This document shows, piece by piece, positions 9,730-40,750 of a stretch of DNA of 64,000 nt. Where the stretch lies: assembly GCA_024639325.1 (NCBI GenBank), contig JAHEIO010000002.1, forward strand, positions 24,132 through 88,131, read 5' to 3'. Both the position numbers and the translations under genes were made by a program. This DNA comes from Gammaproteobacteria bacterium. GTDB taxonomy: Bacteria; Pseudomonadota; Gammaproteobacteria; Arenicellales; JAANXG01. The notes under the pieces are model-generated. The model was not told the origin of the DNA, searched no databases, and saw nothing but the letters and a program-made list of their open reading frames with translations. Positions within the stretch are counted from its first letter, which is position 1, and each line of letters starts with the position of its first letter.

Positions 9730-9848
9730 AAATGCGGATGACCGAATGGCCAGCACGAACTCGGTGCAATTTCGGTAATTGGGGTTGAACGGGTTTGACA
9801 ATACCGAATAACGCGGGTTGTGATGGCTGCGCGCCCGCGGTAACGTCG

Positions 9849-13744: not shown

Positions 13745-13849
13745 GCGAACGAAGTCGAAGCATCGATATTGGAATGATAGGCATCGCCGATCTTCGAAAC
13801 GTCAACGGTATACTTTTTATTCGGGATATGAGCGGATATTATCAAGAGC

Positions 13850-14656: not shown

Positions 14657-14752
14657 CAACCGCCGGAATCAGAGGTCATGGGTCGGCTCGTCGGCAATGC
14701 GGCCGGGTAAGAGGCCCGGCACTGTGCTGGTATACAATATACAAAATTGGCG

Positions 14753-14764
14753 TTTAGGCCTAAA
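14753..14764. promoter_or_regulatory. Perfect 12-bp palindrome upstream of fdsB
   Basis: TTTAGGCCTAAA lies about 22 nt upstream of ATG 14786. It is a possible regulator site, with no further support. Confidence 0.15.
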
Positions 14765-14785
14765 CCCATTTAGAGTAGTGCGACT

Positions 14786-19993: not shown

Positions 19994-20070
19994 GCGCCTG
20001 TAGCTCAGTTGGATAGAGTGTTGGCCTCCGAAGCCAAAGGTCACAGGTTCAAATCCTGTCAGGCGCGCCA
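19994..20070 (+). tRNA. tRNA-Arg (anticodon CCG)
   Basis: Hand-folded cloverleaf of 77 nt. Acceptor GCGCCTG/CAGGCGC, D-arm GCTC-AGTTGGATA-GAGT, anticodon arm TTGGC-CTCCGAA-GCCAA, T-arm ACAGG-TTCAAAT-CCTGT, encoded CCA. Confidence 0.9.
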
Positions 20071-23894: not shown

Positions 23895-25253
23895 CTAGTC
23901 TGAGACACTCAATGCGTCGATTAGTTTTTGATGGATATTATCAAAACTTCCATTGCTCATGATCACAATCTGGTCGCCGTCCCTGGCATCATCTGCGAGC
24001 AATTGGACAATCTCCGGAACGGAGTCCGATATGGAAATTTTCCCATTCGCAATGGATAACAGGTCCCAGCGGGCGTCCCGCGGCCTCAACACGATCGCCC
24101 GATCCGCCTTGTCCAGGGATCGCGCCAGCGAATGTCGATGGCCGCCCAGCAACATGGTATTCGATCTCGGTTCCAGCACGCAGATGATTCGTCGATCGCC
24201 GGGTCGCTGCCTGAGCGCGGTCAGGGTCTGGTCAATGGCTGTCGGGTGATGGGCGAAATCGTCGTATACGCTGATACCCCGGATCGTCTTCAGAAGCTGG
24301 AGGCGTCGTTGAACCGAAGAAAACGCGGATACACCGCGGCAGGCATCGCCTGCCGCAACACCAGCATGGCTGACCGCCGCGACGGCTGCCAGGGTATTCG
24401 CCATGTTGAATGAACCGATCAGGGGTGATTCCACGGCGCCCTGGAATTCGCCTCGATCGTAAACATCGAATCTGGAGAAGTCTTCGGATTGCGCGTGCGC
24501 GGTCCAATCTGCCTTTTCTGTTATTGAGAACCTTTGCAATTGGGACCAGCAGCCGAGGCCGATCACATCTGCGAGGTTGTCGTCGTCCTGGTTCACCAGG
24601 ATCTGTCCCTGTCCAGGCACAATGCGCACGAGGTGGTGAAACTGTTTTTTGATCTCGTCCAGCGTGTCGAATATATCCGCGTGGTCGTATTCCAGGTTGT
24701 TGAGGACCAGCGTGTCGGGATGGTAATGAATGAATTTTGATCGTTTGTCGAAGAAAGCGGTATCATATTCGTCGGCTTCGATGACAAAGAATCGCCCGCT
24801 TCCCAGCCGGGCCGAGACACCAAAATTTTCAGGCACGCCGCCAATCAGGAATCCGGGCTCCAACCCGGCATGTTCGAGCAGCCAGCACACCAGGCTTGCG
24901 GTTGTAGTTTTGCCGTGGGTTCCGGCAATCGCCACCACCCATCGTTCCCGGAGCACTTCCTCGTAGATCCATTGCGGCCCGGACATGTATCGCGTGTTCC
25001 GGTTCAGCACCATTTCCACGCACGGGTTGCCTCTGGACAAGGCGTTGCCGATGACGATGAGTTCGGGATTCCAGCTTTCTATTTGCGCCGGGTCGTAGCC
25101 GTCGAATAAATCGACACCCAACTGGTGCAGTTGGGTGCTCATGGGGGGATACATATTCGCGTCGCAACCGCCGACCTGGTGCCCCAGTTCCGAGGCCAGT
25201 CGAGCCAGGCCTCCCATAAACGTGCCGCAAATTCCCAGGATATAGATACGCAT
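23895..25253 (-). CDS. mpl: UDP-N-acetylmuramate:L-alanyl-gamma-D-glutamyl-meso-diaminopimelate ligase (murein peptide ligase)
   Basis: About 452 aa with MRIYILGICGTFMGGLA... and AIAGTHGKTTT (Mur ligase P-loop). ATG 25253 overlaps the upstream gene's stop. Confidence 0.9.
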   Translation of the reverse strand: MRIYILGICGTFMGGLARLASELGHQVGGCDANMYPPMSTQLHQLGVDLFDGYDPAQIESWNPELIVIGNALSRGNPCVEMVLNRNTRYMSGPQWIYEEVLRERWVVAIAGTHGKTTTASLVCWLLEHAGLEPGFLIGGVPENFGVSARLGSGRFFVIEADEYDTAFFDKRSKFIHYHPDTLVLNNLEYDHADIFDTLDEIKKQFHHLVRIVPGQGQILVNQDDDNLADVIGLGCWSQLQRFSITEKADWTAHAQSEDFSRFDVYDRGEFQGAVESPLIGSFNMANTLAAVAAVSHAGVAAGDACRGVSAFSSVQRRLQLLKTIRGISVYDDFAHHPTAIDQTLTALRQRPGDRRIICVLEPRSNTMLLGGHRHSLARSLDKADRAIVLRPRDARWDLLSIANGKISISDSVPEIVQLLADDARDGDQIVIMSNGSFDNIHQKLIDALSVSD

Positions 25254-25786
25254 CAAAAGTTAACGTCGATCACCGTCAAAAGCAACATCGACGTGATTAC
25301 CTGGCTGACGATGGTGTACAGTAAGCCGTTACCAAAACGTGTCTCCAGGGTTTCTCGGAATACATGGGCGTACACCACCCAGATCCACAGCGACAGGCCG
25401 AACACCAACATACCGGCCAAACCGCTGCCTGACGATTCCTTGTCTGTGGCAAGCAGGCTTACAACCAGCCAGACGAGTATTCGGATGATGGTGCTGACAC
25501 CGAACATTGCTGTCATTGCCTGTACAAATCGCCCCGAATATCCGCGGATTTTTAAGATCACCCATACCGTCAGGGCAAAAAACGCATGCTCCGCAATCGA
25601 CATCACGACGATCGAATTTTGTGTCCCCAGGATCCGCGCAAGTTCGGGCGTAGCCGGCTTCAGTGCGAGTATGTAGGAAGCGATCGACGTGACCGCGGTG
25701 ATGGCCAGAAGGTGATAGGAATACGGAATATCCTGCGGTTTTGCCTTGAGCAGGCTGATATCCAGAAAAATTTTGAGGGCGTTCAT
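25253..25786 (-). CDS. Small polytopic inner-membrane protein (possibly Yip1-like), function unknown
   Basis: 177 aa with about 5 hydrophobic segments. Its stop overlaps the mpl start (TGATG), suggesting co-translation. I recognise no diagnostic motif. Confidence 0.5.
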   Translation of the reverse strand: MNALKIFLDISLLKAKPQDIPYSYHLLAITAVTSIASYILALKPATPELARILGTQNSIVVMSIAEHAFFALTVWVILKIRGYSGRFVQAMTAMFGVSTIIRILVWLVVSLLATDKESSGSGLAGMLVFGLSLWIWVVYAHVFRETLETRFGNGLLYTIVSQVITSMLLLTVIDVNF

Positions 25787-25877: not shown

Positions 25878-26975
25878 ATGCCCAATCACATCATAGACTC
25901 CCCGGATCTTCTCGAGTCGTTCTGCCGGGAGATGGGATCGGCTACATTGATGGCGATCGACACGGAATTCGTTCGCGTCAAGACCTACTACCCCAGATTC
26001 TGTCTGATGCAGGTGTCCTCTGGGGGTAACGTGTATTGCATCGACCCGCTGTACGAAAATCCTGATTGGGGATCCTTGGGTGGTGTCTTGTGTGCACCGG
26101 AAACGACGACGGTGTTTCACGCCGCGCGACAGGATATCGAAGTGCTTTACCAAACTTTCGACGATGTCCCCCGCAGGGTCTTCGACACGCAGGTCGCCGC
26201 GGCCATGGCCGGGCTCGGCGATCAGATCGGCTACGCAAACCTTGTCGAGATCGTGACGGGCAGGGCCCTGGCGAAGGCGCACACGCGTACTGACTGGTGC
26301 CAGCGGCCACTGAGCCGGGATCAGATCGCCTATGCTGTTGACGATGTTCGCTACCTGGAATCCATTTATGACCACCTTGGCTCCGAGCTGGACAAGCGTG
26401 GCCGATTGGCTTGGGTATTCGAGGAATGCAGGTCGCTTTCCGACGTCGAACTGTACCGTTCAGATCCCGAATCGGCTTACCGGCGTGTCGGGTTCGGGGA
26501 CAAACTCGACCCCGCCGCCCAGCGTGTCCTCAAGGAACTGGCCAACTGGAGAGAGCGGACTTCCCAGCTGATGGATTTGCCCCGGAACTGGATTGTAAAG
26601 GACAAAATACTGGCGTTGATCGCGCAAAATTTGCCGGACAGCCGGGAAAAGCTTGCGAAAGTCGAGGGGGTGCCGGAGAAATTCGCCAGGCGCCATGGGG
26701 AGCAACTGGTCCAACTCGTGCGGAAAGTGCTGCGCGAAGGCAGCCAAACCGTGGTATGGCACAGGAAGCCGCCCCTGAGTCCGGAACAGCGCGCGCTGCA
26801 AAAGCAGATCCTGAATTGCTTGAAACGGATTGCGAAGGAAAGCGGAATATCTCCGGGCTTGTTGGGGTCGCGCCACGATGTTGACAGGCTCGTCAGGGGC
26901 TCCCGCGACGTAAATCTTCTCAGCGGCTGGCGTGCGCAGCTGCTCGGAAGTGAGTTGAACAAATTGCTGGGCTAA
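25878..26975 (+). CDS. rnd: Ribonuclease D
   Basis: 365 aa. AIDTEFVRVKTYYPRFCLMQV and HAARQDIEVL (DEDD exonuclease motifs) plus the C-terminal HRDC region are collinear with E. coli Rnd. Confidence 0.9.
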   Translation: MPNHIIDSPDLLESFCREMGSATLMAIDTEFVRVKTYYPRFCLMQVSSGGNVYCIDPLYENPDWGSLGGVLCAPETTTVFHAARQDIEVLYQTFDDVPRRVFDTQVAAAMAGLGDQIGYANLVEIVTGRALAKAHTRTDWCQRPLSRDQIAYAVDDVRYLESIYDHLGSELDKRGRLAWVFEECRSLSDVELYRSDPESAYRRVGFGDKLDPAAQRVLKELANWRERTSQLMDLPRNWIVKDKILALIAQNLPDSREKLAKVEGVPEKFARRHGEQLVQLVRKVLREGSQTVVWHRKPPLSPEQRALQKQILNCLKRIAKESGISPGLLGSRHDVDRLVRGSRDVNLLSGWRAQLLGSELNKLLG

Positions 26976-26979
26976 CGCA

Positions 26980-27969
26980 ATGGCCGTCGCTCTGATTACC
27001 GGCGGGACCGGGTTCATTGGAAGCCATCTCGTGGAAGCCCTGTTGGCAAGGGGTGAGAAAGTGAGATGCCTCGTCCGGTCTCCCGACAAATTGCGCTGGT
27101 TGCGCGGCAGCGATGTTGAGATCGTTACGGGAGACTGTCTGCACCCTCAGAGCCTCGACGCTGCCGTCAGGGGCGTGGACCATGTTTATCACGCCGCTGG
27201 CGTGCTTTGGAGCGCAAATGAACAGGCATATCTTCGCGGTAATGTTCAGGGGACACGCAATCTGATCGAGGCATGTGACCGGGCCAGTCCGGGCCTGGCG
27301 AAGTTTGTGCTGGTATCCAGTCAGGCAGCGGCGGGGCCCGGAACCGGGGGGGGGCCCAGAATAGAGTCTGATGCGCCCGCGCCAATCACGACCTATGGCA
27401 AAAGCAAACTGCTGGCGGAGCAGATCGTTTTGGACTACAAAACCCGGATTTCTGGCGTCGTTGTCAGGCCGTGTGCGGTTTATGGGCCACGCGACACGGC
27501 TTTTTTGGCCTATTTCCGGATAGTTCATCGAGGATTCCTGATAGAATTCGGCGGTGGCGAGGATCGTATCGTCAGTTTGTGCCACGTAAGCGACGTCGTC
27601 GGCGGGATAATCCAGGCGGCGCATGCCGTTTCCGCAGCCAGCGGATCGGTATATTTTCTGGCGGATCCGAAACCTTACCCTTGGCGTGAGGTTGAATCTA
27701 TAATAGAGCAGGCGATGGGCATCAGGGCAAAGCGGCTACGCATTCCGGTTTGGTTTTTGTACGGGCTGGGGATGCTGGGTCAAGGGTATGGCCGCGCCAC
27801 GGGAAAATCTGTTATGTTAAACAGGTCGAGAGTTGCTGAAATGACGGCGCGCCGATGGGACTGTGATGCCGGCAAGGCAAGACGTGAACTGAAGTTCGCG
27901 CCGGTAATGAATCTAAACGACGGCTTACGTGACGTGGTTCGTTGGTATAAACAAGAACAATGGCTATGA
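26980..27969 (+). CDS. NAD-dependent epimerase/dehydratase-family SDR (candidate keto-sphingoid/ceramide reductase)
   Basis: 329 aa with ITGGTGFIGSHL (GxxGxxG) and catalytic YGKSK (YxxxK). Its stop overlaps the start of the next gene (ATGA at 27966-27969). Confidence 0.75.
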   Translation: MAVALITGGTGFIGSHLVEALLARGEKVRCLVRSPDKLRWLRGSDVEIVTGDCLHPQSLDAAVRGVDHVYHAAGVLWSANEQAYLRGNVQGTRNLIEACDRASPGLAKFVLVSSQAAAGPGTGGGPRIESDAPAPITTYGKSKLLAEQIVLDYKTRISGVVVRPCAVYGPRDTAFLAYFRIVHRGFLIEFGGGEDRIVSLCHVSDVVGGIIQAAHAVSAASGSVYFLADPKPYPWREVESIIEQAMGIRAKRLRIPVWFLYGLGMLGQGYGRATGKSVMLNRSRVAEMTARRWDCDAGKARRELKFAPVMNLNDGLRDVVRWYKQEQWL

Positions 27970-29219
27970 CAGACCGGCTATACGCAAAACAGGAATTCAT
28001 CGAAGAAACACCAGAGATTGGCCAGTCCGACACCCGTCCGACCATTTTTGACAAGTGCCGGAAGTATACGCGTGCCCGTGAGGCGATGGCCGCTGGGGTT
28101 TATCCTTACTTTCACCGGATAGATTCCGCCCAGGAACCCGATGTGATCTGTGACGGGAAGCCGATGATCATGATGAGTTCCAATGACTATCTTGGACTGA
28201 CCAGCCATCCCAGGGTGAAGGAAGCGGCAATCGACGCGGTGCGCAAGTTCGGAACCGGGTGCGCCGGGTCCAGATTTCTCAACGGCACGCTGGCAATGCA
28301 CGAGGAGATGGAGACTAGACTGGCGACATTCCTTGGCAAGGAGGCGGCGGCGGTGTTTCCCACCGGATTCCAGGCCAACCTCGGAGCGATTTCTGCTCTG
28401 GTAGGAAAAAGCGAGTACGTCATCATCGATCGTATGAACCACGCCAGCATCTATGACGGCTGCAGGCTCTCCTACGGACAAATCAAAAAATACCAGCACA
28501 ACGACATGGAGAATCTTGAGCGGATCCTCAAAAGCGTCGACGGACGGGGTGCGCTTGTCGTTGTCGACGGCGTGTTCAGCATGGAAGGCGATATCGTGAA
28601 TCTGCCGGGCGTCGTGGAGCTGTGCAAACGTTATGGTGCCGGATTGATGGTCGATGATGCACACAGCATTGGCGTCCTCGGCAAGAACGGTTGCGGCACT
28701 GGTGAACACTTCAATATGGTCGATGAAATCGATCTGATCATGGTCACCTACAGCAAATCGTTGGCAACGATCGGAGGATGCATCGCAGCGAGCGAGGAGA
28801 TGATCCACTATCTTAGGCATCACGCCCGTTCTCTCATGTTTTCTGCCAGCCTGCCGCCGGCCCCGGTGGGCGCCGCGTTGATGGCACTCAATATCATCGA
28901 GGAGGAGCCCGAGCGGCGGGAGCGACTCTGGGACAACGCCAGCTACTTGAGAAATGGCTATCAAAACCTTGGCTTCGATACCGGTGTCAGTGAGACCCCT
29001 GTGGTCCCGGTGGTGGTGGGAGACGAGGAAAAAGTGCTGAAGATGTGGCGGATGTTGTTCGATGCGGGCGTATTCGCCAGTCCCGTCATGTTTCCCGGCG
29101 TGCCACCCGGGATGGCCCTGCTCCGAACGAGCTGCATGGCGACCCACACCGAAGATCACCTGGACAAGGTTCTGGAAACATTTGCCAAAGTCGGGCGTCA
29201 GCTTGATTTGATTTCCTGA
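27960..29219 (+). CDS. Alpha-oxoamine synthase, serine palmitoyltransferase-like (PLP-dependent)
   Basis: 419 aa. SNDYLGL, GSRFLNGT, NHASIYDGC, DDAHSIG, the PLP-lysine TYSKSLATIGG and RERLWDNA are collinear with Sphingomonas SPT (SHASIYDGC, TFSKSVGTVGG, RERLWSNA) as I recall it. The start is 27960 or 27966. Confidence 0.75.
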   Translation: MAMTDRLYAKQEFIEETPEIGQSDTRPTIFDKCRKYTRAREAMAAGVYPYFHRIDSAQEPDVICDGKPMIMMSSNDYLGLTSHPRVKEAAIDAVRKFGTGCAGSRFLNGTLAMHEEMETRLATFLGKEAAAVFPTGFQANLGAISALVGKSEYVIIDRMNHASIYDGCRLSYGQIKKYQHNDMENLERILKSVDGRGALVVVDGVFSMEGDIVNLPGVVELCKRYGAGLMVDDAHSIGVLGKNGCGTGEHFNMVDEIDLIMVTYSKSLATIGGCIAASEEMIHYLRHHARSLMFSASLPPAPVGAALMALNIIEEEPERRERLWDNASYLRNGYQNLGFDTGVSETPVVPVVVGDEEKVLKMWRMLFDAGVFASPVMFPGVPPGMALLRTSCMATHTEDHLDKVLETFAKVGRQLDLIS

Positions 29220-29333: not shown

Positions 29334-30440
29334 ATGCAGGCTAATTTTATCCGCGCCGGTTTACTGTTTTTTCTAGCGACCATCGCGTTCTGCTGTGCGG
29401 CGGATGAGAACGCCGGCGCCACCGACTTTCGCCCCAGTCTGCTCGAGGACGAGTGGTACAGCGAAGGGTGGGATCAGATTTTCTATTTCGAAGACGGAAC
29501 ATTACTCGTTTCCCAGATAACGATATTGAACATCGGATTTGGCAGCCATCATGCCGGTGTATTCACCATGCTCGTGGCCCCTGGCGGCGGCAAGACGATC
29601 ATCAAGCAGAGCCGTTCGAACCGGGACTGGGAATTCTCCGAAAGTTCACTTGATTTGGAAATAGCGAAACACCGCTTGCGCGGCCAATCGCCGGTTTATC
29701 GTGTACTGATTCGTCAGAAATCGGATGAGGTGGATGTCACATTCAACTCTATTACCGCGGCCTGGCCCCTGGGTAGAACGCTGGAAATCGAAGAAGCTTA
29801 TCAGTATGTGAGCTTCTATGCGCCGCTGGCCGAAGCCGAAGGCCGCTACAAGCTGGGGGCGGGCGATGAGTCAGAAGGCTCGGAATGGAACAAGCTGCAG
29901 GGCGGCCGCGGTTTTGCCGTGCGCTATGTAAACTCGACCGGCCTGCACGACCTTATACGCAGTTCAACGCGGATCGTCGACCTGGAGCATTCCGCTGTTA
30001 GCCCCGTTATATACACATCCGTGGACGTCGATGGCGGCGTGCAGGTCCATCTTGCGCTGTTCCAGAACGGTCAATTGTTGCACGAAAGCGGAGATTTCGA
30101 TCTGCAAACAAAGGGCAGGATAGAGACCGCGGACAAGGACACGCGGAACATTCCTGATGGGTTTGCAGTCAATATCGAGGAGGATGAATTCGCTCTAACG
30201 GGAACCGTAGAAATTGAAAGGTTCCTTGCCCGTGTGGATCCCGTTGATTCATTGAAACCTTTTGTACGGACGATTGTAAAACTGTTGAATACGCCAATTC
30301 AGTATAGATATCTGGCAAAGTATGACCTGGACTATACGCAGGGCGGCCGAAAGAGCAGACTCCAGGGGCGGGCCTTGATGGATCATATGGTGCTTAGATA
30401 CCAGAGAAAACCCGAAAACGGCACAAATAACACGCGATAA
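29334..30440 (+). CDS. Secreted protein of unknown function (signal peptide)
   Basis: 368 aa with an N-terminal MQANFIRAGLLFFLATIAFCCAADE signal-like sequence and no recognised catalytic motif. It lies immediately upstream of the MMPL gene. Confidence 0.6.
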   Translation: MQANFIRAGLLFFLATIAFCCAADENAGATDFRPSLLEDEWYSEGWDQIFYFEDGTLLVSQITILNIGFGSHHAGVFTMLVAPGGGKTIIKQSRSNRDWEFSESSLDLEIAKHRLRGQSPVYRVLIRQKSDEVDVTFNSITAAWPLGRTLEIEEAYQYVSFYAPLAEAEGRYKLGAGDESEGSEWNKLQGGRGFAVRYVNSTGLHDLIRSSTRIVDLEHSAVSPVIYTSVDVDGGVQVHLALFQNGQLLHESGDFDLQTKGRIETADKDTRNIPDGFAVNIEEDEFALTGTVEIERFLARVDPVDSLKPFVRTIVKLLNTPIQYRYLAKYDLDYTQGGRKSRLQGRALMDHMVLRYQRKPENGTNNTR

Positions 30441-30450: not shown

Positions 30451-32961
30451 ATGGCTGAAGCAGGCGCGGCAACGGTTTTGGAAGCGGGCGCGGACGACCC
30501 GCCCAAACCTCGTATTCCCGAAAAGCACGTCACCTTCCTCGATCACTGGATTTCATTCCTGATCGCTGCCTACATTCCCTTTCTGCTGGTCGCCGGTGTG
30601 CTCAGTTACTTCAGTTTTGAGATCGCTAAAGGTCTCAAGCTGGATGCTAACATCACATCGCTGATGCCCGACGGCGTGCCCAGTGTCGACAATCTTAAAA
30701 CCGTCATCGATAAAACCGGCGGGTACAACAACGCGATGATACTTGTGGAATCACCGGATCCGGAAATCGCGTTTCGCTATCTCGATGATCTGGGCGCAAG
30801 GATCAGGCAAGAGGACTGGGTTACCAGCGCCGAGTACTCAGAGAACACTGCGATATTCGAACGCAACAAGCTGATTTATGTCGATCAGGAGGATTTGCAG
30901 GAAATGGACCGGCGCCTGGCTGAGCGCATGGAATTCGAGAAAAAGAACCTCGACTTCAGTGTCGATGGGATCCCGGTGGAAGTCACTATCCGTGATGCAC
31001 CCAGAACCCGTCCGGCACTCGAGTTCGAGGACATCGAGTCGAAGTACCGGCGGAAGCAGGCGGGCAGCAGTACCACCAAGTTGTTCACCAGCGAATCTAA
31101 GGATCTGACTATCCTGGTTGTGTTTCCCCAAGGAGGCACCACCAATGTTAAGTACTCCAGAAAAATTATCCGGGATCTCGAGGCGATCATCGCAGAGTCC
31201 GACGCTCAGTCGTACCATCCGGAACTGCGCGTAACGATTGGTGGAAGGATCGCAAATCGCGTTGCCAGCTTCGACTCCATCATGAGCGATGTCAAAGATA
31301 GCGGCTTGTGGTCGATTCTCGCCATATTCCTGGTGGTCGTGCTGTTTTATCGCCGTCTCATGGCAATCTTCTACATCGGGTTGCCGCTCAGCGTCGGATT
31401 TCTGCTCACATTTGCATTGACCAAACTGGTACTGGGCGGGCTCAATCTGGTCACGGTTTTTCTGGTGCTAATTCTGTTCGGACTGGGCATCGACTTCGGA
31501 ATCCACAATCTGGCCCGGTATGACGAAGTTAGAAAGAGCGGCGCCAATATGAGGACCGCGCTCAGAACGATCTACGCGAAAACCGGCCAAGCCTCGCTGC
31601 TGGCGGGGATCACCACGACATGCGGTTTTTATTCCCTGATGTTGACCAACTTCAAGGCGTTCTCGGAGTTTGGCTTCATCGCGGGCAGCGGTATTGTGCT
31701 GACCTTGTTCACGATGTACGTGTTTTTTCCGGCGCTGATGATTTTCGCCGAGAAAATCAGATTGTATCGACCGCCTCGATTCAGTCAGATTCAAAAAAAA
31801 TTAAAGACGCGGCCGTTTCCGGGAGTGGGGCCGATCATGGGCCTTGGAACGGTTTTTGTCTTCGCCGCGTTCTATCTGGCGCCAAATATACAGTTCGAGG
31901 ACGATTTCGGAAAAATAAAGACGAAAGTGCCCGAAATTTCCGAGACCAACGACAAGATAAGGAAAGTGTTTCCCCTGCGCACCGACAAAGCCATGGTGTT
32001 CGTCGAGCAGCTTGAAGACGTGGCGCCGCTGGTGGATGAACTCGAAAAAATCAGGCTCTCCAGGAGCGGTGACGACGTTACCATCGAGAAAGTCAAGTCG
32101 ATCTACAGCGTGGTTCCAAAGTCGGAGGATCAGTACGAGCGTTTGGAGGCCATCGACAGCATTCAACAGAAACTGTTGGAAGCGAGGCGATTGCTCAATG
32201 ATTTCAGTACCGAGAACGATCCGCGAAAACAGGACATCGAAGAAGCACTTCAATATTTCGGCGTGTCGCCGCTGACCGCTCAAGACCTGCCGACCGCGGT
32301 CCAGCGGATGTATACGGGATCGCCGGAGTCGGGCGGATATCTCGTCTATATCTACAACAGCAAAGGCATGTCCAAGCTAGAGAATGCCGAAGCTTTTGTG
32401 AATGACATCCGCGAAATCGAGGCCAATGGTAAAAAGTTCTACCCCGCGACCGAGGCGATGATATTCGTCGACATGATCAACCTGATGAAGCAGGATGCGG
32501 CGCGTGCGATTGGTGTCGTGTTGGCCTCGGTTTTCATCGTTCTTCTGGTTGCGCTCAGGCGACTGAAGCACACCATCGTGGTTATGGTTCCCGTTGTAAT
32601 TGGTATGCTATGGATGCTAGGCCTGATGGTGGCCCTGGACATTCGGCTGAACATTTTCAATATGGTAGTACTGCCCACGGTGCTCGGCATAGGGATCGAT
32701 AACGGCATCCATATTTTTCATCGCTACCAGGAAGAAGGCGGCCGTGTTTTCCACGTTGTCAGAACCACGGGCGGCGCCGCTTTCCTGACCACGCTGACGA
32801 CTATGCTTGGTTTTGCCGGGACGTTGACCGCGTCGAATCAGGGTCTGCAGTCGCTTGGCCTGGTGGCGTGCCTGGGATTGACCTGCTGCATGGTCAGTTC
32901 ACTTACGGTTTTTCCCGCTATCCTGCAGTGGACGGATACTGTCCGTAACGCCAGATCATGA
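30451..32961 (+). CDS. MMPL/RND-superfamily lipid exporter
   Basis: 836 aa with two repeats of a periplasmic loop plus a 5-6 TM bundle (e.g. LILFGLGIDFGIH and VLGIGIDNGIHIFHR), the typical MMPL/HpnN-like architecture. Confidence 0.8.
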   Translation: MAEAGAATVLEAGADDPPKPRIPEKHVTFLDHWISFLIAAYIPFLLVAGVLSYFSFEIAKGLKLDANITSLMPDGVPSVDNLKTVIDKTGGYNNAMILVESPDPEIAFRYLDDLGARIRQEDWVTSAEYSENTAIFERNKLIYVDQEDLQEMDRRLAERMEFEKKNLDFSVDGIPVEVTIRDAPRTRPALEFEDIESKYRRKQAGSSTTKLFTSESKDLTILVVFPQGGTTNVKYSRKIIRDLEAIIAESDAQSYHPELRVTIGGRIANRVASFDSIMSDVKDSGLWSILAIFLVVVLFYRRLMAIFYIGLPLSVGFLLTFALTKLVLGGLNLVTVFLVLILFGLGIDFGIHNLARYDEVRKSGANMRTALRTIYAKTGQASLLAGITTTCGFYSLMLTNFKAFSEFGFIAGSGIVLTLFTMYVFFPALMIFAEKIRLYRPPRFSQIQKKLKTRPFPGVGPIMGLGTVFVFAAFYLAPNIQFEDDFGKIKTKVPEISETNDKIRKVFPLRTDKAMVFVEQLEDVAPLVDELEKIRLSRSGDDVTIEKVKSIYSVVPKSEDQYERLEAIDSIQQKLLEARRLLNDFSTENDPRKQDIEEALQYFGVSPLTAQDLPTAVQRMYTGSPESGGYLVYIYNSKGMSKLENAEAFVNDIREIEANGKKFYPATEAMIFVDMINLMKQDAARAIGVVLASVFIVLLVALRRLKHTIVVMVPVVIGMLWMLGLMVALDIRLNIFNMVVLPTVLGIGIDNGIHIFHRYQEEGGRVFHVVRTTGGAAFLTTLTTMLGFAGTLTASNQGLQSLGLVACLGLTCCMVSSLTVFPAILQWTDTVRNARS

Positions 32962-33765
32962 CGCGGTTTCGAAATCCCGCAGCGGGCGATTGCTGAACTT
33001 GTCCCACGCCGTCTCTTTGTCTGTTTCTCTGGCCAGAATGCTGCCGTCTGGGCGGCGCTCCAGGGTCGGATCGATATAGTATCGGCCGAGCTTTCGGCCG
33101 TCTGCCGGTTCGAACGTATCGCCCAGATATCCCTTTGCGTTCAGATTCAGGATCGTCGCGGGTTCGCCGTCCGCGCCAAACCAGTGCGCGTTGTCCGTAT
33201 ACTCGGTGGTTTTGAAATATTCGTAAGGTGCCAGGATCCGGTCACTGGTTTGCCTCACGGCGAGGGTTCGGTCGTCGATGCGCCGGATCCGCTCGTACTG
33301 CCGAACGTGGGCCTTGCCCTTCAACACGACCTGTGTCGAGACGAGGTTGTGGTGAGCATGCGGCGGCTGACAGGAGTTGGGGGCGACCCACCAGAGCTGC
33401 AGCCGCCAGAGCTTATCAGCGCCGGATCGCGTGATCAGTTTCACCCTTGGGCGGCCATCAGCGAGATCGATCATTCCCTCGTAGATGTCGCGATTGATGT
33501 CGATTTCCTGATAGTACTTGCCAAGCTCCTCTGAAAAGTGCTCGGCGGTGATCTGCTTCGCCTCCAGTCGATTGATCAACTCAACGACCTTTCGGTACAA
33601 CGCACTTTCCGCCGTCGCATCGTTGTCGATGTTCAATAGCTGAAGCAGCCTGGGAACGGCGAAAGGGGAGGCCGCCACCCCGATTCCAATTGCCGCAGAC
33701 AACAGTATGAAGTCACGGCGCTTTACACGATCCATTGCCGGGACGTGATGCACTTGTTCGGTCAT
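32956..33765 (-). CDS. Tat-exported hypothetical protein (possibly cupin-like)
   Basis: Twin-arginine motif MDRVKRRDFILLSAAIGIGVAA and the His-rich segment PPHAHHNLVSTQVVLKG. The start is uncertain: GTG 33801, ATG 33765 or ATG 33735. Confidence 0.55.
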   Translation of the reverse strand: MTEQVHHVPAMDRVKRRDFILLSAAIGIGVAASPFAVPRLLQLLNIDNDATAESALYRKVVELINRLEAKQITAEHFSEELGKYYQEIDINRDIYEGMIDLADGRPRVKLITRSGADKLWRLQLWWVAPNSCQPPHAHHNLVSTQVVLKGKAHVRQYERIRRIDDRTLAVRQTSDRILAPYEYFKTTEYTDNAHWFGADGEPATILNLNAKGYLGDTFEPADGRKLGRYYIDPTLERRPDGSILARETDKETAWDKFSNRPLRDFETAS

Positions 33766-33797
33766 AACGGGACTCTGGAATTCATATGAGCAGTATA

Positions 33798-35033
33798 TCA
33801 CCGCTCATGATTGACGACCGTAGAAACGTGTTTTCTCGAGATTGCCATGGCCATGGCAAAGTGGATACTGATGAACAATATTCCAGCCATGCTAATCCAG
33901 AACAACAGGTGATATCCAAATGGTGTGCCCGTGATCATGGGCGTAATTGACAGCAGAAACACGACGAATGAAAAAGAATCCCGTTTGCCGAGGATCTTCA
34001 GGCTGTCCAGCGCCTTGAACAGCCAGTTGGTCGGCGCTTCGCCCATTTTCTGGCCCAGATCCTGATGCACGGCCGTCATCGTCCCGGGCTGCCGGGTGTC
34101 CACGAGATACCAGGTCATGCCGCCAACCAGCACCAGCATCAACAGCACCATGCTGATGCCGAGCGGAAGCACCCATCCCGCAATCGCGTATTCGTGAGCC
34201 AGGGTGTAGCGTTCATATCCGATGATCAGGCAGACGGCGAACACCACGTATACCAGGTTGTCGCCCACCGTGTCGATCCAGGCGCCCAGCGGAGATGCGC
34301 GGAATGTGCTTCTGGCCAGCTCCCCATCGACCCGATCCAATGCCGCGCACAGTTGGAACAGCGTGCCGCCGATGGCCACGTCGGTCAGCCTGCCCCGGGA
34401 GACGAACCATGCGCTGATGAACCCCACGATGGTTGCCACCAGCGTCATCTGGTTGGGCGTGACGCCGAATTCGCAAAGCACTCGGCTGATAGGAATCGAG
34501 ATCCGCGAGTTCAGGTTGCGTGAAATCGGGCCGGATGTTGATTTGGTTACGTTGGCAAAAATGGCGTCTTTGGCGGCCTTGATATCTTGATGCTCGATCA
34601 CGGGGACGACATAGGCTCCCGTCGGCGAGTCCGGGCGCCAGAGGGGTTCCGGTGCCGAAGACCCGGTTCGTTCCATGCGTGGCGCCGCCGGCACGAATGC
34701 GGGATGTTCACATTCGGAAAGCAATTGCCATACCGGGTTTCCAACGACCACGTTGGCATCGACATGGATATCGGTTTTTTCAATCCGGGTTTGGGAAGTT
34801 TCCCAGCGAATGCCCCTGCCTTTCAGCCGCGGATCATCGCCACATCGGGATCGCGCCGTATCCGCATAGGATCCCGCAACCGAGATTTCGCCGGCGCCCG
34901 CCTGCATGGCGCCCAGGATCAATCGCGTCAGCACCATCACCCCGGCCACCTTCAGAAATGCCGGACTTTCTTCAGGCTCCACATCGGGGAGGTGGATGGT
35001 GACGGTGAACGCTTCCGGTTCAGCTCGATTCAT
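33798..35033 (-). CDS. CDP-alcohol phosphatidyltransferase with degenerate nucleotidyltransferase-like N-terminal domain
   Basis: 411 aa with an intact signature DRVDGELARSTFRASPLGAWIDTVGD (DGxxARx8Gx3Dx3D). The linker TKSTSGPISRNLNSRISIPISR resembles IPCT-DIPPS fusions. The N-domain lacks the GxGxR loop. Confidence 0.8.
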   Translation of the reverse strand: MNRAEPEAFTVTIHLPDVEPEESPAFLKVAGVMVLTRLILGAMQAGAGEISVAGSYADTARSRCGDDPRLKGRGIRWETSQTRIEKTDIHVDANVVVGNPVWQLLSECEHPAFVPAAPRMERTGSSAPEPLWRPDSPTGAYVVPVIEHQDIKAAKDAIFANVTKSTSGPISRNLNSRISIPISRVLCEFGVTPNQMTLVATIVGFISAWFVSRGRLTDVAIGGTLFQLCAALDRVDGELARSTFRASPLGAWIDTVGDNLVYVVFAVCLIIGYERYTLAHEYAIAGWVLPLGISMVLLMLVLVGGMTWYLVDTRQPGTMTAVHQDLGQKMGEAPTNWLFKALDSLKILGKRDSFSFVVFLLSITPMITGTPFGYHLLFWISMAGILFISIHFAMAMAISRKHVSTVVNHER

Positions 35034-36237
35034 ATTGATGCTTCTCGCCGCTCATGGGCAGGTATATGAACCTCATGAGATGGAATGCCAGAGTCAAAAC
35101 GTACCAGACGGTTATCAGTATCAATCCGATCTCCGCATCGCCGAGGATCAGCGCGATGAGCATGCACAACAGGAATGGATTCCGGCGTGCAATGAAGATC
35201 CGGACGGAATAATCGAGCCTGGTATAGTCGTGAAGTTCGTAACCGTACAACCGCTTGTACAGACCGGTGGCGATCTTGTCCGCAAGAAATGACGCTATCA
35301 GTAATGCGTGGATCTGCGCGATCTGATTGGACATATCGAGCAAGGCCCCGCCGCTCAGCGACCATCCGAGGCCGATGTACCATGCCAGCAGATACACGAA
35401 ATCGGAGACATGGTCCAGCAGATCCCCCGACCTGCTGGTCCTCATGGTTACCCTCGCCAGCTTGCCGTCTACGGTATCCAGAAACGCCATGGCAAACCCC
35501 ATGATCGTGGCGACCCAGTAATGACCGGTGAAAAACGGAACTATGGCCCCGAAGGACAAAAGCATGCTGAGCAGGGTGACCTGATTGGGTGTGATCGCAG
35601 TAGGGCTGATCATCCTTACCACCCACCGGGCCGGCAGGTAAAAAACATACTTGGTTATAAAATCGGTGGCGCCTTTGTAAACGGCTGCGAAAGTGATTTT
35701 TTCAGCAAGACGCAAATCTTCGCCGGAGTTCACGGCTATGACGAACGCGCTGACGCGTTTGCGGGTCGCCTGTATGTAGGTGCTGATGTCGGATTCGTGA
35801 ACCAGTTCTGCGGCGTTATCCAAATACCCTGCATGCGTTGTCGCGCCGACAAACCGATTGTCCATGTCGCAGCGGGTGTCCCGACCGGTTTCCTTGAGAT
35901 ACTCCAGAATACGGTTGTCGACCACGACGCCGGCATCGATGACCAGAGCGCGCCCATTGAATGCGGGAATTGAGCGTTCCGTCGAACCCTGGTCTATCTC
36001 CACCGTATCTACCCGTATCTTCGTCCATTTTGAAAAATCCCGCCGGACGAAGTCCTGCAACTGCAGGGGGGAACCACATATGACGCTAGCCTGATCGATG
36101 CCGATCTGAGAAAGCTGGCGCAGCAGCCGCTCCAACAGCGTCATGCCCCACAGGTTTGCCATGGCAAATCGGCCCGTGGCGATCACGTAGGCCCTGGAAA
36201 CACCTCTCGGAATTTCTGAGTTTGATTTGATTATCAT
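35020..36237 (-). CDS. CDP-alcohol phosphatidyltransferase with degenerate nucleotidyltransferase-like N-terminal domain (tandem paralog)
   Basis: Signature DTVDGKLARVTMRTSRSGDLLDHVSD. The start was set at ATG 36237 (MIIKSN...), which forms an ATGA overlap with the upstream flippase stop. The ORF-track extension to 36891 overlaps the flippase gene in another frame. Confidence 0.75.
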   Translation of the reverse strand: MIIKSNSEIPRGVSRAYVIATGRFAMANLWGMTLLERLLRQLSQIGIDQASVICGSPLQLQDFVRRDFSKWTKIRVDTVEIDQGSTERSIPAFNGRALVIDAGVVVDNRILEYLKETGRDTRCDMDNRFVGATTHAGYLDNAAELVHESDISTYIQATRKRVSAFVIAVNSGEDLRLAEKITFAAVYKGATDFITKYVFYLPARWVVRMISPTAITPNQVTLLSMLLSFGAIVPFFTGHYWVATIMGFAMAFLDTVDGKLARVTMRTSRSGDLLDHVSDFVYLLAWYIGLGWSLSGGALLDMSNQIAQIHALLIASFLADKIATGLYKRLYGYELHDYTRLDYSVRIFIARRNPFLLCMLIALILGDAEIGLILITVWYVLTLAFHLMRFIYLPMSGEKHQYESS

Positions 36238-37493
36238 TGGGCTGCCAGGATGCGCCGAACCACCGAACGGCCAAATAGATAAAGCAGTACGAAGTTTACC
36301 AACTGGCCCAGAGGGGCGCCAGTTTGGCCGATCCAGTAAATCATGATGACCGTCGTCGCCAGGCCGGCGATGCCCGCCATGCGCTCCCATATCAACGGCG
36401 CATCTGCCCCGCCTTTCACGACTATTACCGACAACTGGTATTCCGCGAGGCCGTTGAAAATGAACGCGATTGCCAAAATGGCCATTATCGGCCAGGCATC
36501 CGCGTAGGCGTCGCCACCGATCAACCGGACGAGCCACGGGCTGAGGCAAGCCGTTAACAACGGCAGCACGATCATGATCGAATAGTAGAGGCGCCGGTCT
36601 CGGCGGTAGCTCACTGCGTCGAGACCCGCGGCCAGCCTGACCGACAGCGGTCCGGCGAGTATCCTGGCGAGCTGGCTGAGTACCTGTGCCCCCTGCCGCG
36701 CGATGTGGTAACTGGCCATTTGAGCGAGCGGCAGCATGACGGCAATTACGACCCGGTCCAACTGGCGGAAGCCGCGACGGTAGAGCACCCGCTGATAGTC
36801 GGGAAAACAAGCCCTGAGTCGTTTTATCGCGCCGGCCGGGGACAGGGCTTGTAAACTGATGCGCATCAAGATGCTGCGAAGACTCCAGCACGCCAGCAAG
36901 AAGGTAATGAGTACGCCGATCATCAATCCTGCGAACAGGTAATCGACGCCCAGGGCCAGATACAGCAGGAAGGCAAACAGTTTTTCACTCGTTGCTGATC
37001 CCGAGTCGAGTAAAGAATCCAGCCAATACTGCTGCCGGGCGAAAAAAACCGGCGTCAGGATGTACTGGAAGTTTTTCAGCAGAACATGCGTGAAGACGAA
37101 CGGTAGGGCCATCTTAACGTTGATTTCAGGCGCGGCGGCCTGCAGTTCGTCCAGGAATAAATAGCCAAGAACCAGCAGCAGCGCAACAAATCCAATAGTT
37201 GCAGACAGCCGGATCAGCGTCGCCGGCCCGATGACCTTCTCCACGGCTTCTTCGCTCAGGCCCTGATCGATGAGTGGTGTGGCTTCCCGTATGACCTGAA
37301 AATGCAGGCCAAAGTCCAGCAACACCTTGGTCAGCATTACGATTGCGGCATGAACTCCGATCAGGCCCAGCACGGGTTTCGGCAGCTCGCGCGCGAAGTA
37401 AGCCAGAAACAGCAGCGACACCACCGCAACGGCGGCCCGGCTGATTACGATCTCGATAGCGGCGTGCAGTAGGCTTTTATGTTTGGCCTGCAT
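36234..37493 (-). CDS. MOP-superfamily (Wzx-like) polysaccharide/lipid flippase
   Basis: 419 aa, highly hydrophobic with about 12 predicted TM segments, and a general resemblance to polysaccharide biosynthesis (Wzx) transporters. Confidence 0.55.
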   Translation of the reverse strand: MQAKHKSLLHAAIEIVISRAAVAVVSLLFLAYFARELPKPVLGLIGVHAAIVMLTKVLLDFGLHFQVIREATPLIDQGLSEEAVEKVIGPATLIRLSATIGFVALLLVLGYLFLDELQAAAPEINVKMALPFVFTHVLLKNFQYILTPVFFARQQYWLDSLLDSGSATSEKLFAFLLYLALGVDYLFAGLMIGVLITFLLACWSLRSILMRISLQALSPAGAIKRLRACFPDYQRVLYRRGFRQLDRVVIAVMLPLAQMASYHIARQGAQVLSQLARILAGPLSVRLAAGLDAVSYRRDRRLYYSIMIVLPLLTACLSPWLVRLIGGDAYADAWPIMAILAIAFIFNGLAEYQLSVIVVKGGADAPLIWERMAGIAGLATTVIMIYWIGQTGAPLGQLVNFVLLYLFGRSVVRRILAAQ

Positions 37494-37565: not shown

Positions 37566-38351
37566 CTAGGAAGCGACCAGCGACAAATTTGAATTCGCCA
37601 GTTTTGAATTCGATTGGCGGACCCAGTTCGAAACCATGGTTTCGGCTTGTGTCCTGTCGACGGGAAAATCCACCTCACACCAGTCCAGTCCCTCGATCGA
37701 GCGAACCTCTACCCGGTTTGTCTGGGCGATGGCACCAATCGCGGACAGATACCAGATGTCAAGCGCGCCATCCGACCTCATCAGCTCGTTCAGCGTGTCG
37801 ACGAAAATACCGGGTCCTTTCCCGTGGAAATAGATCATTCCGATGGACTCGCCGCCGATCCGGTCTGTTGTCAGGTTTTTTCCGATCTCCAGAAGAGTGC
37901 TTCCATCGAGGTGGACCTTCATGTCGTCCTCATCGTAGTGGTCTTTCTTGTCGATGGCCAGAGTAATTGGTGCGGCGGGTTCGTTGAGCAGCCGCCTCAG
38001 TATGTGATAGTGGAAGATTGTGTCACCGTTGATCAACACGAAGTCCGCATCCATGACCCGTCGTGCCATCCAGCAGCTCACAAGATTGTCGGCTACCGCA
38101 TAGAACGGGTTGAATATAGCGTTGATCGTGCATCCTTTATAGACCAGCCTCAACTCGGCAATTTCGTCCTGCAGCACCCGCGCCTTGAATCCGGTGATTA
38201 CGTATATCTCGTTTATGCCGCACTTCGTGAGTTGAGATACCTGCCAGTCCAGCATGCTCCTGCCGGACAGCGCGATCGTCGATTTGGGCCGATCCGACGT
38301 CAACGGCAGCAGACGCTTGCCCTGACCGGCGCCTAGAATAATAGCTTTCAA
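37566..38351 (-). CDS. Nucleotidyltransferase (sugar/alcohol-phosphate cytidylyl- or nucleotidylyl-transferase)
   Basis: 261 aa with N-terminal MKAIILGAGQGKRLLPLTSDRPKSTIAL (GxGxR + PK motif) of the NTP_transferase fold. Confidence 0.8.
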   Translation of the reverse strand: MKAIILGAGQGKRLLPLTSDRPKSTIALSGRSMLDWQVSQLTKCGINEIYVITGFKARVLQDEIAELRLVYKGCTINAIFNPFYAVADNLVSCWMARRVMDADFVLINGDTIFHYHILRRLLNEPAAPITLAIDKKDHYDEDDMKVHLDGSTLLEIGKNLTTDRIGGESIGMIYFHGKGPGIFVDTLNELMRSDGALDIWYLSAIGAIAQTNRVEVRSIEGLDWCEVDFPVDRTQAETMVSNWVRQSNSKLANSNLSLVAS

Positions 38352-38487: not shown

Positions 38488-39528
38488 TCATACCGGCCGG
38501 CTCGCCTGCCTGAGTTCGGTGTAAAGCTCATCCAGCGCGTCGCAAACATCGTCATCGCTGGTTCTGGATATCAATTCGTCATTGATGTGAAAGGATTTGT
38601 AGGTGAGGTTCATGCTGCCCAGGAATGCGCACCGGAATCGATGTTGTTGGGGACCAAGGGGCTCGACGAGCACGAACTTGCAATGCATGGGCAACAGCTC
38701 GGGATGGACGTAACGAAACGCACGAATACCGCTGTCAGATAGTTTGTTTACCGTCTTTTGCGGAAATCTCCGCTCACTGTCGTGGCCGATGACTTCGATA
38801 TGGCTTCCCGAGGCAGCGAGTCGCCGCAACAGGTTCAAGGCCCCTGCATCAGAGATATGGGACACCGCAACTCTGATTTTCAGTTCATTTCCGGGTATGA
38901 GCCCGCGGCGCAGGTAGTCGATCAACAGGTTATCGCGTCGCGAGGGAAGGAACTGCAGGTCGATGTTCCCAAAACTTTCCGGCGGTGATGAAAACCGCCG
39001 TCGGGGGTGGCTGAACAGGGTGGCGAGGTGCTGGCGAACATAGCGGTAGAGGAGAGCGTTTCCGTAAATCCGCAGTAGCAGATTGTATCCCGAATCCTGG
39101 TCGCCTATGACATCGAATACTTGCTGTTCGGCGACGTCGTTTCCGGAAGGATTGTAGGTGCCAAACAGGCATATATTGGATCGGCTTCCGGCCTTGGATG
39201 CCAGAAACAGCTTTAAATGCATCCGACGTTTGAGCAGGTTTGCAGGATGGCGAAAGGCCAGGGTCGACGAATCGAAGCCATGATCCTTCAGAAATTTCTC
39301 TGCTGCCAGGTTGCCGGGTTTATAGTAGGTGTTTCCGGACAGCAGCAGTTTCACTTTTACGCCCCGTCCATGTGCCTCGACCAGTGCCTTACAGAACCTC
39401 ATATTGCGCAGGTAGTAGGTTGCAATGAAAATTTCTTCACCTGAGGGTACGGAGTGGATCAGTTTCAACAGTGACTCGAGCAGTAGTGAGGGCGTGGTGG
39501 GGCGATTGACGAGCAGTGCGATGTCCAC
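38488..39528 (-). CDS. Phospholipase D superfamily protein (two HKD-like motifs)
   Basis: 346 aa with MHLKLFL...GTYNPS and MHCKFVLVE...GSMNLT, i.e. two HxK...G(S/T)xN motifs. The acidic position is non-canonical in the first motif. Confidence 0.7.
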   Translation of the reverse strand: MDIALLVNRPTTPSLLLESLLKLIHSVPSGEEIFIATYYLRNMRFCKALVEAHGRGVKVKLLLSGNTYYKPGNLAAEKFLKDHGFDSSTLAFRHPANLLKRRMHLKLFLASKAGSRSNICLFGTYNPSGNDVAEQQVFDVIGDQDSGYNLLLRIYGNALLYRYVRQHLATLFSHPRRRFSSPPESFGNIDLQFLPSRRDNLLIDYLRRGLIPGNELKIRVAVSHISDAGALNLLRRLAASGSHIEVIGHDSERRFPQKTVNKLSDSGIRAFRYVHPELLPMHCKFVLVEPLGPQQHRFRCAFLGSMNLTYKSFHINDELISRTSDDDVCDALDELYTELRQASRPV

Positions 39529-40629: not shown

Positions 40630-40750
40630 TTATCGAATGAGTAGCGGTTTGACTTATATGCGGCTTCCGTTACCGAAACGCTCGATGTGAGTCGTTTCGG
40701 ATGTGGGGACGCAATATTACCTCATCTGGTCATCGGTTTGATGCATTGTT

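Follow-up and report, generated by a model that had tools for sequence, protein, structure and literature searches.

The ceramide cluster of Caulobacter crescentus comprises spt, acpR, aasR, cerR, bcerS, head-group genes and LptC2/F2/G2 (PMC11324152), and its reductase, CerR, is reported to be periplasmic, though the export signal is undefined (PMC11087976). Homologues of CerR and bCerS cluster with Spt-like genes (Ding et al. 2024, PMC11334938), and the ceramide genes of Bacteroidota are dispersed in the genome (PMC11334938). The 3-ketosphinganine reductase of Bacteroides, BT_0972, is a classical short-chain dehydrogenase/reductase (SDR; PMC9278070). Serine palmitoyltransferase (SPT) of the Bacteroidota type uses acyl-CoA, the dedicated AcpR being found only with the alpha/beta/gamma 'Rhodobacteria'-type SPTs (PMC11324152). 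For Bacteroides and Prevotella a CDP-inositol 'alternative' route to inositol lipids has been put forward, which is putative and unconfirmed (Heaver et al. 2022, PMC9246714). The route that bacterial sphingolipids take across the inner membrane to the outer membrane is not known (PMC11087976; PMC11324152; both 2024). Here we describe a stretch of 64,000 nucleotides from contig JAHEIO010000002.1 of a marine gammaproteobacterium of the order Arenicellales (hereafter the window, 64 kb in all), in which the gene for an SDR overlaps that for an SPT-like alpha-oxoamine synthase and is followed by candidate export genes.

We consider it probable, if by no means settled, that this pair represents the first two enzymes of a sphingolipid pathway of the Bacteroidota/Nitrospirota type, which an Arenicellales lineage acquired and turned into an operon for both synthesis and export.

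A predicted SPT of the Bacteroidota/Nitrospirota type

The synthase is encoded on the plus strand at 27966-29219 (alternative start 27960; the longest open reading frame (ORF), 27960-29219, has 419 aa), and is assigned to the Pfam family Aminotran_1_2. Among NCBIfam models the best match is NF047600, the Bacteroidota-type SPT-CFB (528 bits); it leads by 104 bits over the next model, the BioF/Kbl subfamily TIGR01825 (424 bits, cutoff 535), and by 123 bits over BioF (405, cutoff 426). Lower in the ranking come the beta-proteobacterial SPT (399), Kbl (395, cutoff 460), the alpha-proteobacterial SPT (329), HemA (254) and the CqsA type (229). Solved structures give a similar picture: SPT of Sphingobacterium multivorum (PDB 8guh/3a2b) is the best match at 419 bits and 48% identity, ahead of Thermus BioF/Kbl (314 bits), Kbl (288), Sphingomonas SPT (283) and a cysteate acyltransferase (275). 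An exact-sequence lookup of the synthase returned no match.

We then mapped, through an alignment, the residues that Ikushiro and colleagues named for the complexes of S. multivorum SPT (PMC10196870). Identity extends to 21 of the 22 named active-site and acyl-pocket residues, the sole change being F338 to L. The lysine that binds pyridoxal 5'-phosphate (PLP), K266, and its cage of H161, D232 and H235 correspond to K244, H138, D210 and H213 of the S. multivorum enzyme; N75, G103, S104, S265 and M293, which contact serine, are conserved, as are Y50 and F106 in the acyl pocket, and L107 is also identical. The original prediction, an annotation of this DNA made from its letters, had left room for an amino acid other than serine and had called for inspection of the substrate-specifying residues; because all L-serine-contacting residues of the S. 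multivorum structures are conserved, a non-serine substrate is unlikely.

In a neighbour-joining tree the gammaproteobacterial SPTs form one clade (100% bootstrap), nested with sequences from Nitrospirota and Thermodesulfobacteriota (100%). Relative to the Kbl and BioF/Kbl outgroups, this clade falls with the SPTs; a grouping with Kbl or BioF, the outcome that had been named as speaking against an SPT, was not seen in this tree. Furthermore, the three motifs by which the protein was originally recognised (NHASIYDGC, TYSKS..GG and RERLWDNA) are all present. The two rankings, the residues and the tree agree with the earlier assignment to SPT rather than to BioF, Kbl or CqsA. This strong homology evidence points to an SPT of the Bacteroidota/Nitrospirota type, with a predicted activity on serine and long-chain acyl-CoA.

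A candidate reductase whose gene overlaps the SPT gene

Immediately upstream, at 26980-27969 on the plus strand, lies the gene for a 329-aa extended SDR of the NAD-dependent epimerase/3-beta-HSD family (Pfam Epimerase 139 bits, 3Beta_HSD 102 bits). Its NAD(P)-binding GxxGxxG site is found in GGTGFIGSHL at residues 8-17, and its YxxxK motif is Y139-GKS-K143; among solved structures it is closest to a putative oxidoreductase and to the sterol 3-dehydrogenase NSDHL. With the Rossmann motif already at residue 8, we find no N-terminal signal peptide in this protein. The Pfam matches and the two motifs bear out the epimerase/dehydratase class that the original prediction had attributed to CerR, and together with the linkage to spt they suggest a CerR-like candidate for the 3-keto reductase of the sphingoid pathway. 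The extended SDR differs in class from the classical SDR BT_0972.

The junction between the two genes reads ATGGCTATGA, and in the stretch caATGGCTATGAcag ATG codons at 27960 and 27966 precede the SDR stop TGA at 27967-27969; the second ATG lies within an ATGA shared with that stop. The overlap at 27966-27969 that was originally proposed can therefore be read directly from the window sequence. Since the closest homologues of the synthase are annotated at 417 aa, we favour 27966 as its start. Overlaps of 4 nt are frequent in operons, and a single instance carries little weight. The same 4-nt overlap is also present in the related loci L052, L054, L056 and L058, whose SPTs are 63-73% identical to that of the window, and its conservation across loci exceeds chance. 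Translational coupling of reductase and synthase would prevent the build-up of a reactive keto-base.

The gene upstream of the SDR is rnd, for RNase D (25878-26975, plus strand; TIGR01388 343.7 bits, above cutoff), and in Arenicellales this gene is the conserved marker of the module's upstream edge. From the rnd stop to the SDR start there are 4 nt in the window (26973-26982), 7 nt in L001 and 116-176 nt in L052 and L054. Because the distance in this genome is only 4 nt, the SDR-SPT operon may be co-transcribed with rnd or read through from it here. A scan for promoters and terminators found fewer sites than in shuffled controls and is uninformative on operon boundaries.

A four-gene operon in two gammaproteobacterial lineages

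The order SDR-SPT-(AttH-like)-MMPL is retained in L001-L004, L052-L054 and L056, in each case with rnd and mltA as the flanking genes, and the wider synteny DsbA-Mpl-U177 / Rnd-SDR-AOS (U177 and AOS being a 177-aa protein and the alpha-oxoamine synthase) in L001-L004, L052, L054 and L056. In the window the SDR/SPT overlap of 4 nt is followed by 114 nt between SPT and the AttH-like gene and by 10 nt between the latter and the MMPL gene. An MMPL gene follows SPT in every gammaproteobacterial locus that is long enough to show it. Locus L058, from a different gammaproteobacterial lineage, has the four-gene operon beside cytochrome c maturation (ccm) genes, its products being 40% (SDR), 63% (SPT), 28% (AttH-like) and 50% (MMPL) identical to those of the window. 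The four-gene operon thus recurs in two gammaproteobacterial lineages and in different genomic contexts. Also of interest is the 177-aa polytopic membrane protein itself (25253-25786), which has no family match; its gene overlaps the start of mpl and is divergent from rnd, and its position is conserved across all Arenicellales-type loci.

The gammaproteobacterial background that was apparent originally is borne out by L001, which is 99% identical over the synthase and comes from an 'uncultured Gammaproteobacteria' metagenome-assembled genome (MAG); after it, the closest relatives are MAGs of Arenicellales. Nothing in the base composition hints at a recent transfer. The idea that an SPT would be taxonomically unusual in this class stands in part: SPT is already known there from Azotobacter vinelandii and Pseudomonas luteola, which carry Caulobacter-type clusters with the alpha-type SPT, AcpR, AasR and bCerS (PMC11324152), but a Bacteroidota-type SPT in Arenicellales is unusual. 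In the literature searched, no paper relevantly combined SPT with HpnN or MMPL, and none linked Arenicellales to sphingolipids.

The linked acyltransferase is absent from the gammaproteobacterial loci

A scan for relatives of the synthase, with one genome per species, yielded 51 loci. SDRs that are 30-40% identical to that of the window adjoin SPT in Elusimicrobiota/Endomicrobia, Ignavibacteria/Melioribacteraceae, Bacteroidota MAGs and Nitrospirota, so that, with the gammaproteobacterial loci, the SDR-SPT linkage is seen in at least five phyla. In about 40 of the loci, from at least four phyla, the synthase is followed directly by a protein of ~375 aa, giving the block SDR-SPT-GNAT375. These proteins are mutually 39-56% identical and match Pfam Acetyltransf_1 above cutoff (22-37 bits) in the N- or the C-terminal half, depending on the member, and we refer to them as double-GNAT proteins. 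A PDB search with the double-GNAT protein gave nothing useful. We take it to be of the bCerS type because CerR and bCerS homologues are reported to cluster with Spt-like genes (PMC11334938).

From 40 double-GNAT proteins encoded next to SPT we built a hidden Markov model (HMM), which we ran unfiltered at E<=10; it had zero matches in the 64-kb window, in the eight Arenicellales-type loci and in L058 (nine gammaproteobacterial loci). Pfam and NCBIfam scans of all window ORFs of at least 150 aa found neither an acyltransferase nor an acyl carrier protein (ACP), and neither an ACP-like GxDS motif nor an unassigned intergenic ORF is present in the window. The earlier statement that no GNAT-like bCerS or ACP is encoded in the window is upheld by these empty searches; the acyltransferase is indeed missing from the locus, an absence specific to the gammaproteobacterial lineage. 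The missing ACP is no anomaly: none is expected at the locus, because SPT of the Bacteroidota type uses acyl-CoA (PMC11324152).

Bearing in mind that ceramide genes are dispersed in Bacteroidota, absence from the locus does not imply absence from the genome, and N-acylation by an unlinked acyltransferase is most likely the ordinary answer. We also considered the 368-aa gene product that follows SPT as the missing ceramide synthase and rejected it: this protein has no similarity to the Nitrospirota GNAT and has an all-beta, AttH-like fold.

Candidate export partners

In place of the ACYLTRANSFERASE, the window has an AttH-like gene and then a gene for an MMPL pump. The first (29334-30440, plus strand) encodes a secreted AttH/CrtC-like protein of 368 aa with an N-terminal hydrophobic, signal-like helix; it matches no Pfam or NCBIfam family and belongs to a small family of 31 proteins in all. 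Its AlphaFold2 (AF2) model (pLDDT 85.6, pTM 0.84) was compared with solved structures by Foldseek, which returned AttH (2ich), Fsa2/Phm7 and a 25-phosphosteroid lyase (E 3e-11 to 8e-07, TM ~0.55); the probability is 1.0 for 2ich, 7e5t and 9g2i, and the model has the two-domain all-beta barrel fold. AttH, the Fsa2/Phm7 pericyclases and the 25-phosphosteroid lyase are two-barrel proteins that hold hydrophobic ligands. The model and the gene's position suggest a protein that would work with the pump in the periplasm by binding or processing lipid. Because many polar residues are invariant in the family, the protein may be a head-group binder or an enzyme rather than a passive carrier. Homologues occupy the equivalent position in L001, L003, L004, L054 and L058.

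The second gene (30451-32961, plus strand) starts 10 nt further on and encodes a transporter of the MMPL/HAE3 type in the resistance-nodulation-division (RND) superfamily (Pfam MMPL 135 bits, Sterol-sensing 31 bits), with HpnN (6wu0/5khn) as best PDB match. Its scores fall well short of HpnN membership (TIGR03480 299 against a cutoff of 752; NF052374 146 against 1100). A role in hopanoid metabolism, which HpnA and HpnN as best named matches of SDR and pump would bring to mind, was rejected, as neither the window nor the related loci contain any hopanoid genes. We propose the pump as a candidate exporter of the operon's lipid.

A downstream island of candidate head-group and transport genes

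Beyond the pump, most genes lie on the minus strand. The first (32956-33801, minus strand) runs towards the MMPL gene, and the two share their last 6 nt; the 281-aa product has a twin-arginine-like signal (RRDFIL) and sub-threshold cupin/PCO_ADO matches, and no homologue was found in any related locus. Its role and its place in the system are uncertain.

Next come two genes for CDP-alcohol phosphotransferases. One (33798-35033, minus strand) is DIPP-synthase-like (CDP-OH_P_transf 39 bits; NF041135 IPCT/DIPPS 96 bits; PDB 4mnd, 4o6m). The other (35020-36237, minus strand) has homologues in L004, L054 and L056; the 623-aa ORF listed for it, which runs to 36891, is over-extended and overlaps the adjacent flippase-like gene by ~650 nt. 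Its true start is probably the ATG at 36237 (405 aa), in an ATGA overlap with the stop of that upstream gene, which would make a second translationally coupled pair. The flippase candidate (36234-37493, minus strand) is a polytopic membrane protein with weak MOP/Wzx similarity (Polysacc_synt E 0.0015, sub-threshold), and Polysacc_synt genes are found near MMPL homologues in L056, L058, L059 and L062.

At 37566-38351 (minus strand) a nucleotidyltransferase resembling inositol-1-phosphate cytidylyltransferase is encoded (NTP_transferase 46 bits; IPCT domain of NF041135 64 bits), which is 29% identical to the NTP transferase of a Robiginitomaculum inositol-1-phosphate synthase (MIPS) cluster and is a candidate maker of a CDP-alcohol. 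It is followed by a PLD-family phosphatidyltransferase-like protein (38488-39528, minus strand; PLDc_2 82 bits in two stretches) and by a radical-SAM enzyme (39598-40629, minus strand; Radical_SAM 69 bits) whose similarity to MoaA, Tes and viperin is confined to the core domain. Orthologues of this enzyme, 65-76% identical, occur in L004, L054 and L056, always near the SPT-MMPL module; no current model of sphingolipid synthesis requires a radical-SAM enzyme.

On the plus strand, at 40751-41416 with a TTG start, lies a gene for a secreted, stand-alone jellyroll protein of 221 aa that resembles the N-terminal domain of LptD and LptA. A 188-aa minus-strand ORF at 40730-41296 was discarded as spurious, since homology places the real gene on the plus strand. 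Orthologues of the LptD-N-like protein are found in L004, L054 and L056 (E 1e-47 to 1e-52), and the one in L056 scores above cutoff in Pfam for both LptD_N and LptC, the window copy falling below; at greater distance, it is the N-terminal domain of true LptD proteins that is matched. The AF2 model (pLDDT 84.2) has LptD, LptA/LptH and LptC as its best Foldseek matches, and on the sequence matches and this modelled fold the product is assigned to the secreted OstA-type beta-jellyrolls of the Lpt class.

A third CDP-alcohol phosphotransferase, PIP-synthase-like, is encoded at 41468-42298 (minus strand; Pfam 49.5 bits), and is 34-35% identical to CDP-OH transferases that lie beside inositol-1-phosphate synthase and MMPL genes in Robiginitomaculum and Kordiimonas. 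Homologues of the pump that are 35-42% identical to it were found in L059, L060 and L062 (Robiginitomaculum, Kordiimonas sp. SCSIO 12603 and a sponge-metagenome contig). There the pump gene stands beside genes for inositol-1-phosphate synthase, a CDP-alcohol phosphotransferase, a nucleotidyltransferase and a flippase-type protein (in L060, an unassigned protein of similar size), and these clusters look like an undescribed cassette for the synthesis and export of an inositol lipid. The window has homologues of three of these four alphaproteobacterial and sponge-cluster components. As the island resembles the CDP-inositol route (PMC9246714), analogy suggests a phospho-alcohol head group, possibly phospho-inositol. 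We regard the wider operon, together with this head-group and transport island, as more informative than the SDR-SPT pair alone.

Other genes of the window

The beginning of the window (567-19240) has a methylated-amine or one-carbon flavour, with PhyH-family dioxygenases at 567-1490 and 13850-14656, a dimethylglycine/sarcosine-dehydrogenase-like protein with FAD and GCV_T domains at 11297-13744, and an NAD-linked formate-dehydrogenase-like pair at 14786-19240. A tRNA-Arg (CCG) at 19994-20070 is the only RNA gene that Rfam finds in the window, and no Rfam regulatory element was detected anywhere in it. Further downstream, an 882-aa protein (48528-51176) carries Sel1 repeats behind a Ser/Thr protein-kinase domain, and in a single 611-aa ORF (58265-60100) the N- and C-terminal domains of TetR are joined to Rieske and ring-hydroxylating-oxygenase alpha domains; this ORF probably represents two neighbouring genes that the ORF caller merged, or possibly a real fusion.

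A proposed pathway and its alternatives

We envisage a pathway in which the PLP enzyme would join L-serine and a long-chain acyl-CoA to give 3-ketodihydrosphingosine, with no ACP required. The coupled cytoplasmic SDR would then use NAD(P)H to reduce the 3-keto group, acting on the free base or on its N-acylated form, a step that family and conserved linkage suggest. N-acylation itself would be performed by an enzyme encoded outside the locus, most likely an unlinked acyltransferase. Gene context suggests the remaining steps: the nucleotidyltransferase and the CDP-alcohol phosphotransferases would add a phospho-alcohol head group, possibly phospho-inositol; the flippase-like protein would carry the lipid across the inner membrane; the proton-driven, HpnN-like RND pump would extract it; and the AttH-fold and LptD-N-like periplasmic proteins would receive it and ferry it towards the outer membrane.

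Several observations weigh against this proposal. No curated NCBIfam cutoff is reached by the synthase, and because its 528 bits fall under the equivalog cutoff of NF047600 (640) we regard it as a divergent member of the SPTs. The best named match of the SDR is the hopanoid-associated HpnA (NCBIfam, 162 bits, below the cutoff of 368), and the CerR-like label derives from family and linkage. That the double-GNAT protein of other phyla is a bCerS-type N-acyltransferase is something that we infer, and neither an N-acyltransferase nor an inositol-1-phosphate synthase is encoded in the 64-kb window. The AttH-like gene is absent from L052 and L056 and is therefore dispensable. Finally, gene order is the sole link that we infer between pump and lipid, and one MMPL homologue, in L061, lacks a lipid context.

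How far the missing acyltransferase should be pressed is the first point on which another explanation turns: the lineage might have no ceramide synthase at all, the operon making a base, or a phospho-alcohol derivative of one, that does not undergo the usual N-acylation and is exported as a surface or secreted amphiphile. The failure to find the GNAT of ~40 loci in the nine gammaproteobacterial loci and the window, even with filters off and E<=10, is what this explanation would lead one to expect, as is the occupation of the GNAT position by export components, and the conserved radical-SAM enzyme that accompanies the module adds to its appeal. We nevertheless think it unlikely, because single-chain bases are toxic and make poor membrane lipids, and because the dispersal of ceramide genes in Bacteroidota (PMC11334938) separates absence at a locus from absence in a genome.

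The pump context invites a different doubt, to which we give a similarly small chance: SPT and reductase might make a sphingolipid while the MMPL, AttH-like and Lpt-like proteins serve another lipid, such as an inositol glycerophospholipid, their adjacency being accidental. Alphaproteobacterial MMPL homologues are indeed linked to inositol-phosphate head-group genes with no SPT nearby, and the pump homologue of L061 points the same way. The carriers of those alphaproteobacterial pumps (Sphingomonadales and Robiginitomaculum, as named in the source records) belong to groups known for sphingolipid synthesis, however, which we count against an accidental adjacency. Furthermore, SDR-SPT-X-MMPL is retained with tight spacing in two gammaproteobacterial lineages that have different flanks, and the head-group genes could act on ceramide equally well.

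Less probable still is the use of another amino acid by the synthase, be it cysteate, leading to capnine and sulfonolipid, or alanine or glycine, leading to 1-deoxy bases. Homology to the solved cysteate-C-fatty acyltransferase is clear (275 bits), and SPTs take alanine and glycine at low efficiency (PMC10196870); yet the cysteate enzyme scores 144 bits under S. multivorum SPT, the L-serine contacts are all identical, and no cysteate synthase is encoded in the window. Finally, we see hardly any room for a housekeeping BioF/Kbl of biotin or threonine metabolism next to an unrelated sugar epimerase, for even though bioF comes near its permissive cutoff (405 against 426) and TIGR01825 gives 424, no BioF/Kbl cutoff is passed, SPT-CFB scores 123 bits higher, SPT-specific residues are kept, no bio or tdh genes lie nearby, the SDR/GNAT linkage spans phyla and the tree groups the protein with SPT.

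A sphingolipid pathway coupled to export, as we propose, would bear on more than this lineage. The operon, with its Lpt-fold and flippase-like neighbours, supplies concrete candidates for the transport of sphingolipids to the outer membrane; were the lineage to lack a ceramide synthase and to use a dedicated RND/AttH/LptD-N route, this would be the first bacterial sphingolipid transport system to be identified. A natural variant of the SDR-Spt-GNAT block that has lost the acyltransferase from the cluster is also relevant to the debate on whether reduction or acylation comes first. The Bacteroidota/Nitrospirota-type sphingolipid pathway would be added to the order Arenicellales, among whose lineages are marine and sponge-associated ones.

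Comparison with known systems

With the SPT of S. multivorum and other Bacteroidota (PDB 3A2B, 8GUH; NF047600), the window synthase has in common the fold and the PLP, serine and pocket residues, and it looks soluble; it differs in an N-terminal extension of ~25 residues, in its gammaproteobacterial host and in its coupling to the SDR. The closest gene arrangement is the SDR-Spt-GNAT block of Nitrospirota, Elusimicrobiota, Ignavibacteria and some Bacteroidota ('Spt-like clade B', PMC11334938). Here the SDR-SPT order is the same, the SPTs are 45-64% and the SDRs 30-40% identical to those of the window, and in the tree the window clade falls within this group, whereas the ~375-aa double-GNAT is missing from the window and an AttH-fold protein and an RND pump are encoded instead.

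The Caulobacter cluster resembles the window in combining SPT with an epimerase-family reductase, a CDP-alcohol-type enzyme, a nucleotidyltransferase, a candidate flippase and Lpt-fold proteins. On the other hand, the window SPT scores 329 bits with the alpha-type model against 528 with the CFB type, and AcpR, AasR and bCerS are absent from the locus. The reductases may also differ in location, no N-terminal signal being seen in that of the window and Caulobacter CerR being reported to be periplasmic (PMC11087976), and the transport candidates are an RND pump, an AttH-like protein and an LptD_N-like protein in the window but LptF/G/C paralogues in Caulobacter. The CDP-inositol route of Bacteroides and Prevotella (PMC9246714) likewise places an NTP-transferase and a CDP-alcohol phosphotransferase beside sphingolipid genes, and relatives of the window pump cluster with inositol-1-phosphate synthase; the window itself has neither this synthase nor the HAD hydrolase, and instead has three CDP-OH transferases and a PLD-family protein.

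The pump shares with HpnN (5KHN/6WU0) and with the sterol transporter BstA the common MMPL/HAE3 RND architecture and a sterol-sensing-like region. Like HpnN, it is encoded beside biosynthetic genes for its presumed lipid, and the best match of the neighbouring SDR is also hopanoid-linked (HpnA); in contrast to HpnN, its partners are SPT and head-group genes, with no squalene-hopene cyclase or other hopanoid gene. The enzyme families themselves are thus known, and what is new is the presence in Gammaproteobacteria of an SPT module of the Bacteroidota/Nitrospirota type from which the linked acyltransferase is gone and which is joined to an RND-based export set.

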